Below are positions 41,477 to 50,238 of a DNA stretch of 64,000 bases, in pieces. The notes under the pieces are model-generated. The model saw only the letters and a program-made list of their open reading frames with translations, did no database searches and was not told the origin of the DNA. How positions within the stretch are numbered: the first letter of the stretch is position 1; each line of letters starts with the position of its first letter. Where the stretch lies: NCBI RefSeq assembly GCF_044324785.1, contig NZ_CP172127.1. The stretch is one strand, 5' to 3'. A program made the position numbers and the translations under genes. This DNA is from Escherichia coli. GTDB taxonomy: Bacteria > Pseudomonadota > Gammaproteobacteria > Enterobacterales > Enterobacteriaceae.

Positions 41477-42565
41477 ATGCCTCACAATCCTATCCGCGTG
41501 GTCGTCGGCCCGGCTAACTACTTTTCACATCCAGGAAGTTTCAATCACCTGCATGATTTTTTCACTGATGAACAACTTTCTCGCGCGGTGTGGGTCTACG
41601 GCGAACGCGCCATTGCTGCGGCGCAAACCAAACTTCCGCCAGCGTTTGAACTGCCAGGGGCAAAGCATATTTTGTTTCGCGGTCATTGCAGCGAAAGCGA
41701 TGTACAGAAACTGGCGGCTGACTCCGGTGACGACCGCAGCGTGGTGATTGGCGTCGGCGGCGGCGCACTGCTCGACACCGCGAAAGCCCTCGCCCGCCGT
41801 CTCGGTCTGCCGTTTGTTGCCGTTCCGACGATCGCCGCTACCTGCGCCGCCTGGACACCGCTCTCTGTCTGGTATAACGATGCCGGACAGGCGCTGCATT
41901 ATGAGATTTTCGACGACGCCAATTTTATGGTGCTGGTGGAACCGGAGATTATCCTCAATGCGCCGCAAGAATATCTGCTGGCGGGGATCGGTGACACGCT
42001 GGCGAAATGGTATGAAGCGGTGGTGCTGGCCCCGCAACCAGAAACGTTGCCGTTAACCGTGCGCCTGGGGATTAATAACGCGCAGGCCATTCGCGACGTC
42101 TTGTTAAACAATAGCGAACAGGCGCTTGCCGATCAGCAAAATCAACAGTTAACGCAATCATTTTGCGATGTGGTGGATGCGATTATCGCCGGAGGTGGAA
42201 TGGTCGGTGGTCTGGGCGATCGTTTTACGCGTGTGGCGGCGGCCCATGCCGTGCATAACGGTCTGACCGTGCTGCCGCAAACCGAGAAGTTTCTTCACGG
42301 TACCAAAGTCGCCTACGGAATTCTGGTGCAAAGCGCCTTGCTGGGTCAGGATGATGTGCTGGCACAATTAACCGGGGCGTATCAGCGTTTTCATCTGCCG
42401 ACTACGCTGGCGGAGCTGGAAGTGGATATCAATAATCAGGCGGAGATCGACAAAGTGATTGCCCACACCTTACGTCCGGTGGAATCCATTCATTACCTGC
42501 CAGTCACGCTGACACCAGATACGTTACGTGCAGCGTTCGAAAAAGTGGAATCGTTTAAAGCCTGA
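41477..42565 (+). CDS. ybdH: Iron-containing alcohol / hydroxycarboxylate dehydrogenase YbdH
   Basis: 362 aa; GVGGGALLDTAKA NAD-binding motif of the Fe-ADH / glycerol dehydrogenase family. Confidence 0.9.
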   Translation: MPHNPIRVVVGPANYFSHPGSFNHLHDFFTDEQLSRAVWVYGERAIAAAQTKLPPAFELPGAKHILFRGHCSESDVQKLAADSGDDRSVVIGVGGGALLDTAKALARRLGLPFVAVPTIAATCAAWTPLSVWYNDAGQALHYEIFDDANFMVLVEPEIILNAPQEYLLAGIGDTLAKWYEAVVLAPQPETLPLTVRLGINNAQAIRDVLLNNSEQALADQQNQQLTQSFCDVVDAIIAGGGMVGGLGDRFTRVAAAHAVHNGLTVLPQTEKFLHGTKVAYGILVQSALLGQDDVLAQLTGAYQRFHLPTTLAELEVDINNQAEIDKVIAHTLRPVESIHYLPVTLTPDTLRAAFEKVESFKA

Positions 42566-42574
42566 CGTACATAT

Positions 42575-42772
42575 TTAGCAGCAGCGCGCGCCGCCTTTTC
42601 CACCGTAGCGCGCGTCCTGCCGCTCACGGAAAAACTCCTCGTAGGTCATCGGCGTTTGATCGGGATGGTTTACCCGCATATGTTCGACATAGTTGTCGTA
42701 ATCAGGCATACCAATCATCAGCTTCGCCGCCTGACCTAAATATTTTCCGGCTTTTGCCAGTGAATCAAACAT
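42575..42772 (-). CDS. ybdD: DUF466 small protein YbdD (CstA partner)
   Basis: ORF track 66 aa; 65 aa from the second Met; C-terminal CC. Confidence 0.85.
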
Positions 42773-42789
42773 CAATACCTCCGGTAAAC

Positions 42790-42935
42790 AGGTTGCTGAT
42801 AGAGTGCATTAATAGCTATCAACGCGCTCGGTCAGTCCCCTCGCCCCACCGGGGAGAGGGTTAGGGTGAGGGGGAACCCTCGGCACCATGCCAACTTTCG
42901 CCAACATTCGCCAACATTCCCCCCTCACTCTGACT
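42790..42935. repeat. Structured GC-rich palindromic element plus tandem direct repeats between ybdD and cstA
   Basis: CCCTCGCCCC-acc-GGGGAGAGGG hairpin, adjacent GGGTGAGGGGGAACCCTC, and tandem TTCGCCAACA repeated about 2.5 times. Confidence 0.5.
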
Positions 42936-45041
42936 TTAGTGCGCGCCTTTCGCCTGCGCCACGATCTCCTCGACATTTTCCGGCATTGGCTCATACGGCG
43001 TTTCTTTCGCCGTTGGCTTCGGCTCTTTCAATGCCGCCAGTGCCGTCTTAATCGAGAACAGTGCCAGAACCACCACGACCACCATAAAGAAGATGGTTAA
43101 CCCGGCATCAAGACGGTTGTTGAACACCAGTTGCGCCAGTTGTGACTCAGTATACTGCGATGGAATATTGCCGCTGTCGATCATTGCCTGGAACTTGTTA
43201 GCAATCGCCAGGAAGCCGACTTTCGCATCCGGGCTAAACGCTTTCTGCCAGCCTGCGGTCAGGGTACAAATCAGCAGCCAGGCCGTTGGTACCAGCGCCA
43301 CCCAGGCGTAACGTTGACGTTTCATTTTGAACAGCACCACAGCACAGAGCATCAGCGCCATCCCTGCCAGCATCTGGTTGGCAATACCAAACAGCGGCCA
43401 CAAGGTGTTAATACCGCCCAGCGGATCGACCACACCCTGATGGAGGAAGTAGCCCCACGCCAGCACGCACAGCGCCGTTGCCAGCAGGTTAGCAGGCAGT
43501 GAATCGGTCCGCTTCAGGCCAGGAGACACCACGCCCAGCAGATCCTGCAACATAAAGCGCGCAGCACGCGTACCCGCATCTACCGCCGTCAGAATAAACA
43601 GAGCTTCAAACAGAATGGCGAAGTGATACCAGAACGCCACATCCATCATGCCGCCCAGCGCGCCGTGCAGAATGTAGGCCATCCCCACCGCCAGCGTCGG
43701 CGCACCGCCCGCACGGGAAATGATCGACTGTTCACCCACTTCGCTGGCAATCTGGTTGAGCGTATCTGGTGTAATGCTAAAGCCCCAGCTACTCACCACC
43801 TGCGCGGCAGAAGCGACTACATCCGCCGTCCCTGCAGGAGCCAGCACCGCCATCGGGCTGTTCATGGCGAAGTACACACCTGGATCGATGATACAGGCGG
43901 AAACCAGCGCCATAATCGCCACGAAGGATTCCATCAACATCCCACCGTAGCCGATAAAGCACGCCTGCCCTTCGTTCGCCAGCATCTTCGGCGTGGTGCC
44001 GGAAGAGATCAGCGCATGGAAGCCAGACACCGCGCCACAGGCGATGGTGATAAACAGGAACGGGAACAGGTTACCGGTCCATACCGGGCCAGTGCCATCG
44101 ACAAATTTAGTTAGCGCAGGCATGGTCAGCGTCGGGCGCATAATCAAAATGCCTACCGCCAGACCGACGATGGTCCCGATTTTCAGGAAGGTTGAGAGGT
44201 AGTCGCGCGGGGCCAGCAACAGCCACACCGGCAGCACCGCCGCCACAAAACCGTAACCCACCAGCATCCAGGTCAGCTGCACGCCGGTAAAGTCAAAGTA
44301 CGGTGCCCAGGTCGGACTTTCTGCCACCCAGCCGCCAGAGATAATGGCGAAAATCAGGAACACCAAACCGATGACCGACACTTCGCCAATACGCCCCGGA
44401 CGCAGATAGCGCAGGTAGATCCCCATAAACAGCGCCAGCGGAATAGTGAACGCAACGGTATACGTTCCCCACGGGCTATGAGTCAGGGCTTTCACCACGA
44501 TCATCGCCAGTACTGCAAGGATAATGACCATGATCATAAAGCAGGCCACCAGCGCTATCACCCCGGCGGTTGGCCCCATCTCTTCTTTGACCAGCTCACC
44601 CAGCGAGCGACCGTCACGGCGCGTAGAAACAAACAGCACCATGAAATCCTGCACCGCACCGGCGAGAACCACCCCGGCGAGCAGCCAGATCATCCCTGGC
44701 AGGTAACCCATTTGCGCCGCCAGTACCGGCCCCACCAGCGGGCCAGCTCCGGCAATGGCCGCAAAATGGTGACCGAACAGCACTTTCTTGTCCGTCGGCA
44801 CATAGTCCAGCCCGTCGTTATGGCGCACCGCGGGCGTCATACGCGTCGGGTCAACCGCCAGCACATTTTTGGCGATATACAGACCATAAAAACGGTAAGC
44901 GATCAGATAGATACAGACCGACGCCACCACAATCCACAGCGCATTGATCTGTTCCCCACGATTTAAAGCAATGTATCCCAGAGCAAATGCTCCCATTACA
45001 GAGAGCACTGTCCAGACGAGGTATTTCCCTGATTTGTTCAT
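42936..45041 (-). CDS. cstA: Carbon starvation protein CstA (peptide / pyruvate transporter family)
   Basis: 701 aa polytopic membrane protein. Confidence 0.95.
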   Translation of the reverse strand: MNKSGKYLVWTVLSVMGAFALGYIALNRGEQINALWIVVASVCIYLIAYRFYGLYIAKNVLAVDPTRMTPAVRHNDGLDYVPTDKKVLFGHHFAAIAGAGPLVGPVLAAQMGYLPGMIWLLAGVVLAGAVQDFMVLFVSTRRDGRSLGELVKEEMGPTAGVIALVACFMIMVIILAVLAMIVVKALTHSPWGTYTVAFTIPLALFMGIYLRYLRPGRIGEVSVIGLVFLIFAIISGGWVAESPTWAPYFDFTGVQLTWMLVGYGFVAAVLPVWLLLAPRDYLSTFLKIGTIVGLAVGILIMRPTLTMPALTKFVDGTGPVWTGNLFPFLFITIACGAVSGFHALISSGTTPKMLANEGQACFIGYGGMLMESFVAIMALVSACIIDPGVYFAMNSPMAVLAPAGTADVVASAAQVVSSWGFSITPDTLNQIASEVGEQSIISRAGGAPTLAVGMAYILHGALGGMMDVAFWYHFAILFEALFILTAVDAGTRAARFMLQDLLGVVSPGLKRTDSLPANLLATALCVLAWGYFLHQGVVDPLGGINTLWPLFGIANQMLAGMALMLCAVVLFKMKRQRYAWVALVPTAWLLICTLTAGWQKAFSPDAKVGFLAIANKFQAMIDSGNIPSQYTESQLAQLVFNNRLDAGLTIFFMVVVVVLALFSIKTALAALKEPKPTAKETPYEPMPENVEEIVAQAKGAH

Positions 45042-50100: not shown

Positions 50101-50238
50101 TTTCGGTCGCTAACCTAAAAGCAAACGCGCACTATGTCAACTCTTGAGGTAACGCAATCTGCAACTCGGGGTTGCATCTGGTTGTGGTTACAATGAAAAT
50201 GAGAAGCATTAACTTCATTAATAACAGGAAGCTGATTT

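Follow-up and report, generated by a model that had tools for sequence, protein, structure and literature searches.

The window analysed in this work, a stretch of 64,000 nucleotides of Escherichia coli DNA (contig NZ_CP172127.1), carries the ent-cstA-ybdD-hcxA region of this bacterium in reversed order. The upstream gene cstA (42936-45041, minus strand) encodes a pyruvate/proton symporter of 701 aa, as assigned from the list of open reading frames and the RefSeq annotation of homologous loci, and the downstream gene ybdD (42575-42772, minus strand) encodes a protein of 65 aa belonging to the YbdD/YjiX family, an assignment based on the same list, the K-12 annotation (b4512) and the sequence itself. 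On the other side of ybdD we find its neighbour hcxA (ybdH), at 41477-42565 of the plus strand. The TAA stop of cstA occupies positions 42936-42938 and the ATG of ybdD positions 42770-42772, the latter with a Shine-Dalgarno motif GGAGG at 42778-42782, all of them on the minus strand. Counted from the annotated ATG, the cstA-ybdD spacer comprises 163 nt (42773-42935) and is 100% identical by blastn to that of E. coli strain 19KM1831. The first-pass annotation of this DNA had correctly located the cstA-ybdD spacer, but its left edge at 42776 assumed a TTG start codon instead of the annotated ATG starting at 42772.

CstA as well as YbdD is necessary for constitutive pyruvate uptake (PMC5847655), and therefore the CstA:YbdD ratio could matter. 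Kaplan et al. 2016 (PMC5100583) quote RegulonDB as having the two genes in separate single-gene units. A scan with promoter consensus sequences revealed no sigma-70 promoter-like site in the spacer, which is consistent with ybdD relying on read-through from cstA. No intrinsic terminator was detected on either strand of 42500-43200, and the sequence that follows each of the two helices described below is not T-rich. A search of 42300-43400 against Rfam at E ≤ 10 gave no family at its gathering score; the best hits were far below threshold (mir-423, 25.3 bits versus 71; Antizyme_FSE, 21.2 versus 40), and these miRNA and frameshift-element models were consequently discarded as chance matches.

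A BoxC element in the cstA-ybdD spacer

The most conspicuous feature of the spacer is an inverted repeat, CCCTCGCCCC (42838-42847) and GGGGAGAGGG (42851-42860), with 9 out of 10 positions complementary and a loop of 3 nt, which folds as a hairpin at the DNA level. A third, G-rich block, GGGTGAGGGGG (42864-42874), can also pair with the first one (90% in a repeat search). The three blocks make up a core of 36 nt on the plus strand (42838-42873), CCCTCGCCCC-ACC-GGGGAGAGGG-TTA-GGGTGAGGGG, supported by a match to published sequences and by DNA folding, where blocks 1 and 2 form a Watson-Crick hairpin and block 3 is the proposed strand of a triplex or a G-quadruplex. The same strand of the core contains four G-tracts of at least three residues separated by loops of 3 nt. 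A 24-mer of the core occurs a single time in the window, with 0 occurrences expected from 100 shuffles.

The repeat search also revealed a stronger partner for the region of the third block, missed by the first-pass annotation: GTTAGGGTGAGGGGG (42860-42874) is 87% complementary over 15 nt to CCCCCTCACTCTGAC (42920-42934), an arm that abuts the cstA stop codon. In the mRNA sense, the arm beside the stop reads AGUCAGAGUGAGGGGGG (42919-42935, minus strand), and its delimitation comes from the repeat search, from minimum free energy (MFE) structures and from its single-copy nature in E. coli. Between both partners lies a tandem array of decamers (42890-42919, plus strand), detected with Tandem Repeats Finder and by allele alignment, with a period of 10, 3.0 copies, 95% matches and the consensus GCCAACATTC. 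This decamer is the TTCGCCAACA of the first-pass annotation in a different phase, and the count of about 2.5 copies given there becomes 3; the inverted repeat, the third block and the array themselves all lie where they had been placed. A second palindrome that had been pointed out, GAGGG..CCCTC, is also present, though it is only 5 bp long, and its AACCCTC half is absent from the other BoxC copies compared. The observation that the spacer does not match the classical REP was equally right, given that the REP consensus (GCCGGATG..CATCCGGC, an imperfect palindrome of about 35 nt) has no occurrence in 42773-42935.

Judged by its sequence, the segment 42815-42886 (plus strand) is an intact BoxC, a short GC-rich repeat dispersed in the genomes of enterobacteria. 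An alignment with 14 copies of strain K-12 delimited a repeat unit in which the three-block core is preceded by GCTATCAACGCGCTCGGTCAG (left flank) and followed by AACCCTCGGCAC (right flank). The unit common to the K-12 copies consists of the left flank GYGCNCNNNCNG, TCCCCTCGCCCC, a loop of 3 nt, GGGGAGAGGG, TTA, GGGTGAGGGG and AA(N)GCAC, so that the flanks shared by the window and the K-12 copies are GCGCTCGGTCAG on the left and AA..GCAC on the right. The segment 42838-42873 follows the block layout of BoxC (a C-rich block, its G-rich complement and a G-rich mirror, each of ~10 nt, with 3-4 nt in the loops), and its second loop is the TTA of type A and not the CCG of type B; with the flanks, units of this family reach about 56-63 bp or more. 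The core contains exactly the published 21-mer of the G-quadruplex motif HPG1, GGGAGAGGGTTAGGGTGAGGG, and its 36 nt are those of the 'type A mm' entries in Table 1 of TM_ECO save for loop 1, which in the window is ACC and not TTT, TCT, CTT or CTC. The window copy also keeps the conserved G.A mismatch ('mm') found in 13 out of 23 K-12 copies. The order of blocks (C-G-G), the TTA loop, the flanks, the intergenic location and the multi-copy nature are all shared with the element called BoxC, PIT, TM_ECO or HPG1, a family that the first-pass annotation had not recognised. There are also some differences: in the window the element is intact, but in K-12 the third block of the copy occupying the same site is degenerate, GGGTGAGAGGG, and that copy is outside the 23 of Holder and co-workers; moreover, the complement of block 3 of the window copy doubles as one arm of the longer, locus-specific helix with the sequence at the cstA stop.

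BoxC was reportedly described by Bachellier, Hofnung and Gilson in the 1990s, and the PIT element by Hoyne and Maher in 2000. The number of copies of the family reported in K-12 ranges from about 20 to 33. According to Holder et al. 2015 (PMC4666352), their intrastrand triplex motif TM_ECO had a previous description as BoxC and was found again by Maher's group under the name of PIT element, and an independent survey counted BoxC (56 bp, 32 copies) among the known stem-loop families of E. coli (PMC2267715). Even the precise site has been tabulated, as 'cstA >>> 632058 - >>> ybdD', which is HPG1 no. 19 in Table 1 of Kaplan et al. 2016 (PMC5100583). Altogether, both the element and its presence between cstA and ybdD are already known in print, and the finding is real but ordinary.

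A search with the 160-bp spacer originally annotated (blastn, E ≤ 1e-5) found 55,693 places; of the 5,426 complete E. coli genomes searched, 5,356 had at least one, and the median was 12 per genome. As a consequence, the suggestion of a dispersed repeat family held up upon this genome-wide search, but its extent had to be reduced: multi-copy matches cover only positions ~37-101 of the query, and just the ~72 bp of 42815-42886 correspond to the repeat, the remainder of the supposed 160-bp element being single-copy. The decamer array and the 42919-42935 arm are thus specific to this locus, which ruled out that they could be a dispersed 'short form' of BoxC. A similarity restricted to short motifs hints, at low confidence, that the arm and the decamers could derive from a second BoxC, internally deleted and inverted. 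The repeat itself is fully intergenic, between the cstA stop (42936) and the ybdD start (42772).

It had also been considered that this could be a small mobile or repetitive element, and this class is right as regards the repeat, mobility being less probable: BoxC is essentially absent from phages and nearly so from typical plasmids, since most of the E. coli 'plasmid' matches listed are records of 0.7-4.9 Mb. Two 174-kb records of 'Campylobacter phage' contain BoxC, and a 465-bp contig of 'Streptomyces sp. DH24' and a contig of a 'Bacillota' metagenome-assembled genome (MAG) carry an enterobacterial YbdD (89-98% identity); all of them are probably the result of contamination or misbinning. 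On the other hand, BoxC-like blastn matches were obtained in 176 records of plasmids from Sinorhizobium, Rhizobium, Azospirillum and Shinella, with several places per record, and this similarity points to a related family of triple-block repeats in alpha-proteobacteria.

With respect to other families of small enterobacterial repeats, BoxC shares with REP/BIME sequences (PU) its short, GC-rich and palindromic character and its intergenic location, often between co-transcribed genes, but shows no similarity to the REP consensus, and REPs do not have a third block. ERIC/IRU, RSA and other small repeats or MITEs are likewise dispersed, intergenic and structured, although ERIC (~127 bp) and RSA (~152 bp) differ in sequence and length. 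To our knowledge, no RAYT-type enzyme has been linked to BoxC, and we know of no transposase associated with it.

Alleles of the spacer in E. coli and other Enterobacteriaceae

The comparison of presence and absence suggested in the first-pass annotation revealed that the spacer is polymorphic, both within E. coli and across the Enterobacteriaceae. Alleles were obtained with a 311-bp query reaching into both genes, sampling the matches evenly down the ranking and retrieving their sequences. We have found at least eight alleles, which make up a mosaic of BoxC, decamer copies (from 0 to 3) and REP. The most frequent one is the K-12 type (~70% of the sample), with BoxC, two decamers and a REP of ~35 nt. 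The window type has BoxC, three decamers and no REP, and only 290 genomes cover at least 80% of the 160-bp query; the allele of DG351-2 has two decamers and is otherwise identical to it. Rare alleles with BoxC are those of GPEC657 (one decamer, REP), S19-651 (two decamers, REP and a 6-nt deletion inside BoxC) and WWCOL-236 (two decamers, no REP and a different junction). The allele of strain 4069, with one decamer and REP but no BoxC, resembles Escherichia albertii. Finally, the type found in CFT073, Nissle and JJ1887 is a spacer of 112 nt where the BoxC core, the decamers and REP are all missing. Coverage is under 80% in 1,323 of 5,419 genomes (24%), which in the sample were mostly of the CFT073 type and also 4069-like; the cstA-ybdD spacer of about 24% of E. 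coli genomes lacks the BoxC core, CFT073, Nissle and JJ1887 being among them.

In the window, a junction ATTAATA (42808-42814, plus strand), defined from the K-12 sequence and the allele alignment, replaces the ~35-nt REP (GCCGGATAAGGCG..CGCCGCATCCGGC) that occurs in K-12 and in four species of Escherichia other than E. coli, and since REP-less alleles of the window type occur in only ~5% of E. coli genomes, the absence of REP is probably a derived loss. In the CFT073 type, the left flank of BoxC (CCGAGCGTGTTGATAGC) is retained, and a hairpin GCCCTCTTAATTCAGGAGGGC followed by ATTTGTA is found at the REP position. This hairpin with its ATTTGTA resembles the single hairpin in the spacers of Citrobacter and Salmonella. 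From its likeness to the Citrobacter version, it may be the ancestral intercistronic hairpin, which would have been replaced by REP in other lineages of E. coli. For BoxC itself the direction is less clear: its core is missing from both the other Escherichia species and the CFT073 type, which favours a gain, whereas the BoxC-type left flank retained in CFT073 and the different end points of the deletions favour a loss. Holder et al. 2015 (PMC4666352) reported an excess of variability around TM_ECO loci, including a 'palindrome effect' whereby a plain stem-loop is what remains after partial deletions, and the polymorphism of the cstA-ybdD spacer is the kind of local instability that these authors described.

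A second presence/absence polymorphism of BoxC occurs within the same 64-kb window, at fepB-entC. In K-12, the fepB leader includes a ~183-bp segment where a type A and a type B BoxC copy form an inverted pair, and the window is devoid of such a pair at ~50200-50230. The junction reads TTAA|TGCTTC in the window, compared with TTAA, the 183 bp and then TAATGCTTC in K-12; the TTAA and TAA around the K-12 segment might be a short target duplication.

We also extracted 77 cstA-ybdD spacers from other genomes, fetching the loci with YbdD and keeping one genome per species. In most Enterobacteriaceae (Salmonella, Citrobacter, Klebsiella, Kluyvera, Kosakonia and others) the spacer has 47-63 nt and a single GC-rich hairpin, such as GCCCTCTCC..GGGGAGGG in Salmonella arizonae. 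Atlantibacter and one genome of Citrobacter freundii have in the same place a canonical hairpin with a T-run behind it. The Escherichia species other than E. coli (E. albertii, E. whittamii and two more) keep the long helix beside the cstA stop, H1 (see below), together with REP, and have no BoxC core. BoxC itself sits between cstA and ybdD in about 13 other species, among the genera Enterobacter, Pseudocitrobacter, Lelliottia, Leclercia, Phytobacter, Pluralibacter and Cedecea, plus a misbinned MAG; at least 7 of the 13 carry inverted pairs, mostly of a type A (TTA loop) and a type B-like copy, whose orientations are not those seen in E. coli. For the 74 spacers with 30 nt or more, the median z-score of the MFE is -3.56, and 89% of them are below -2 (mononucleotide shuffles). 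Such stable folds with so varied sequences indicate that the conserved feature is a stem-loop and not a particular sequence, and the slot between cstA and ybdD seems constrained to some degree even if BoxC as such is not. In Enterobacter sp. Bisph1, Kosakonia cowanii and K. quasisacchari, however, the spacer is just 14-20 nt long, with no room for a hairpin; these three species offer natural 'no stem-loop' controls for any proposed function. Taken with the absence of the core in ~24% of E. coli, they indicate that the element is dispensable.

Predicted RNA structure and mapped 3′ ends of the cstA-ybdD spacer

The G-rich strand of the BoxC unit is the plus one, which is the template for cstA and ybdD, and the cstA-sense RNA therefore carries the C-rich complement. 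Folding of the cstA-ybdD junction bore out the prediction of a structured element: the cstA-sense RNA of the spacer has an MFE of -79.1 kcal/mol (z = -4.33), and none of 200 dinucleotide shuffles was equally stable, with a z-score of -4.03 for the opposite strand. When the window allele and 11 more from Escherichia were folded, the MFE structures paired the AGUCAGAGUGAGGGGGG arm with the complement of BoxC block 3 (42860-42874) in the helix that we call H1, whose predicted interior holds a small apical hairpin, GGCAUGGUGCC (42882-42892), along with the decamers. All 12 of them have a predicted H1 immediately behind the stop codon (GAGUGAGGGGG...CCCCCUCAC), and those alleles bearing BoxC add the predicted BoxC hairpin adjacent to it. 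RNAalifold detected no covariation among the 12 alleles, but only five invariant G-C pairs, as the arms are too similar and the runs of C misalign. As in Rho-independent terminators and attenuating hairpins, a GC-rich stem-loop follows directly the stop codon; unlike them, no U-tract comes after either the BoxC or the H1 helix.

The spacer does contain a known RNA 3′ end. Term-seq of K-12 mapped an end of the 'orphan' class at 632098(+), 84 nt upstream of ybdD (Adams et al. 2021, PMC7815308), whose reported upstream sequence includes BoxC, in agreement with the initial proposal that the element lies in the cstA-sense RNA. The signal is low (~1,686 reads) and occurs in one of the three condition tabs, the second one, which by the order of the caption corresponds to LB at OD 2.0, when cstA is induced. 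Coordinate mapping of this entry of their supplementary file 1 gives position 42827 of the window (minus strand), where the transcript would end in ...GGGGCGAGGGGACUGACCGAG|, at 9-10 nt downstream of the BoxC hairpin and with no U-run. This distance from the stem and the non-U context make exonuclease trimming or processing a better fit for the end than intrinsic termination. A second type-A copy with the same RNA orientation, in the fepB leader, shows a 3′ end at the same relative distance, 624567(-), and none is listed in the same file near BoxC copies in the G-rich orientation. No usable data on 3′ ends of cstA or ybdD were found in TERMITe 2025, in the paper on 3′-UTR valves or in the one on Nanopore RNA sequencing, and ybdD is not mentioned in Gasperotti 2020.

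The BoxC pair of the K-12 fepB leader has abundant Term-seq 3′ ends inside, at 624567(-) and 624680(-) (Adams et al. 2021), one of them ~10 nt 3′ of the type-A hairpin and the other immediately 5′ of the type-B one (103,563-243,213 reads). On this basis, the pair would seem to attenuate or process this leader in those strains that have it.

A proposed replaceable stem-loop and its alternatives

RNA hairpins of REP/BIME elements protect the upstream mRNA from 3′ exonucleases, as in the case of malE-malF. By analogy with these intercistronic sequences, we favour that BoxC at cstA-ybdD acts as a replaceable intercistronic RNA stem-loop bounding or protecting the cstA transcript, a reading to which we would give somewhat better than even odds (a probability of about 0.55). 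The BoxC hairpin (CCCUCUCCCC-GGUG-GGGCGAGGG) and the adjacent H1 would form a stable stem-loop module in the cstA-ybdD transcript, which would mark out the 3′ end of a cstA mRNA species and shield it, either by blocking 3′-to-5′ exonucleases or by pausing or weakly terminating the RNA polymerase. Expression of ybdD would thereby be set below, or apart from, that of cstA, and an influence of BoxC on the coupling or stability of ybdD expression, as originally suggested, is a plausible candidate effect. BoxC is best viewed as a neutral or selfish repeat that occupies the slot and substitutes for an ancestral hairpin; other lineages have there a REP, a simple GC hairpin, or BoxC in one or two copies. 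Several data weaken this role, namely the lack of a U-tract, the separate units of cstA and ybdD in RegulonDB, the dispensable core, the weak Term-seq signal, the absence of covariation and the assays of Maher's group with PIT elements, where, as cited in PMC4666352, neither promoter nor terminator activity nor any effect on the RNA polymerase was observed. A bolder version, which we regard as tentative and clearly less probable, would make of BoxC a REP-like determinant of RNA 3′ ends, whose C-rich orientation would fix the end ~10 nt downstream. The slot would be recurrently colonised under this version, and the BoxC copies of Escherichia, Enterobacter, Leclercia, Lelliottia, Pseudocitrobacter, Pluralibacter, Phytobacter and Cedecea may have arrived independently, replacing the ancestral GC hairpin; the resulting alleles, with or without BoxC, with 0 to 3 decamers and with or without REP, may tune the CstA:YbdD ratio.

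Two other explanations are in our opinion unlikely, to a similar extent. One of them places the relevant structure in the DNA: the G-rich template strand, when unwound, would adopt an intrastrand purine triplex or a G-quadruplex, leading to polymerase stalling and local rearrangement (Holder et al. 2015, PMC4666352) or to a regulatory switch among hairpin, G-quadruplex and duplex (Kaplan et al. 2016, PMC5100583). The four G-tracts with their short loops are compatible with such structures, TM_ECO oligonucleotides form a stable triplex in vitro as seen by CD and NMR (Tm 70-82 °C), and HPG2 shows transitions between G-quadruplex and hairpin by CD. Nevertheless, DMS footprinting in vivo revealed no triplex protection, a duplex is formed when the complementary strand is present, and the earlier in vivo assays of replication, transcription and conjugation are cited as negative in PMC4666352. 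The variety of spacer alleles matches that reported around TM_ECO loci, but part of it comes from REP and the decamer array and not from BoxC. The second explanation is that BoxC has no function here, and it is just a neutral or selfish remnant, spread by some form of copying or recombination and tolerated in a non-essential spacer, its structure being a by-product of the sequence. The absence of the core in so many E. coli genomes, the lack in the window of the fepB-entC pair of K-12, and degenerate copies such as the third block of K-12 or the deletion in S19-651 all speak for it, as do the inactive reporter assays and the neighbours of TM_ECO, which belong to no functional gene class and keep no fixed distance between the element and their ORFs (Holder et al. 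2015, PMC4666352). What this explanation does not account for is that a stable hairpin is kept regardless of its sequence in 89% of 74 species, and that two independent copies have an RNA 3′ end shortly 3′ of their hairpin.

Far less probable is that BoxC behaves as a MITE-like element that inserted into the spacer and whose movement depends in trans on a transposase or a RAYT-like enzyme. The repeat is certainly dispersed, intergenic and palindromic, its flanks are conserved beyond the core, the same spacer has been occupied independently in ~13 other species in both orientations and as pairs, and the K-12 fepB-entC segment is bounded by TTAA and TAA where the window has a single TTAA. But neither terminal inverted repeats nor consistent target-site duplications could be defined at cstA-ybdD, and the alleles differ by internal deletions with varied end points instead of clean insertions or excisions. 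Moreover, the near absence of BoxC from phages and the large size of the matching 'plasmid' records noted above also argue against mobilisation, and no link to mobile elements was found by Holder and co-workers (PMC4666352).

As a discovery, the value of this finding is small, as it deals with a repeat family known since the 1990s and a site tabulated in 2016. Of modest value is the picture of one hairpin slot filled interchangeably by plain hairpins, REP and BoxC across the Enterobacteriaceae, a slot that within E. coli has been quickly remodelled into at least eight alleles. If BoxC were indeed a REP-like determinant of RNA 3′ ends, this would provide a function for a repeat family that has gone without one for 30 years, despite the negative assays for termination. 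In this regard, the Term-seq data give a hint that BoxC hairpins mark RNA 3′ ends, which at this locus could affect the stoichiometry of CstA and YbdD in pyruvate uptake.
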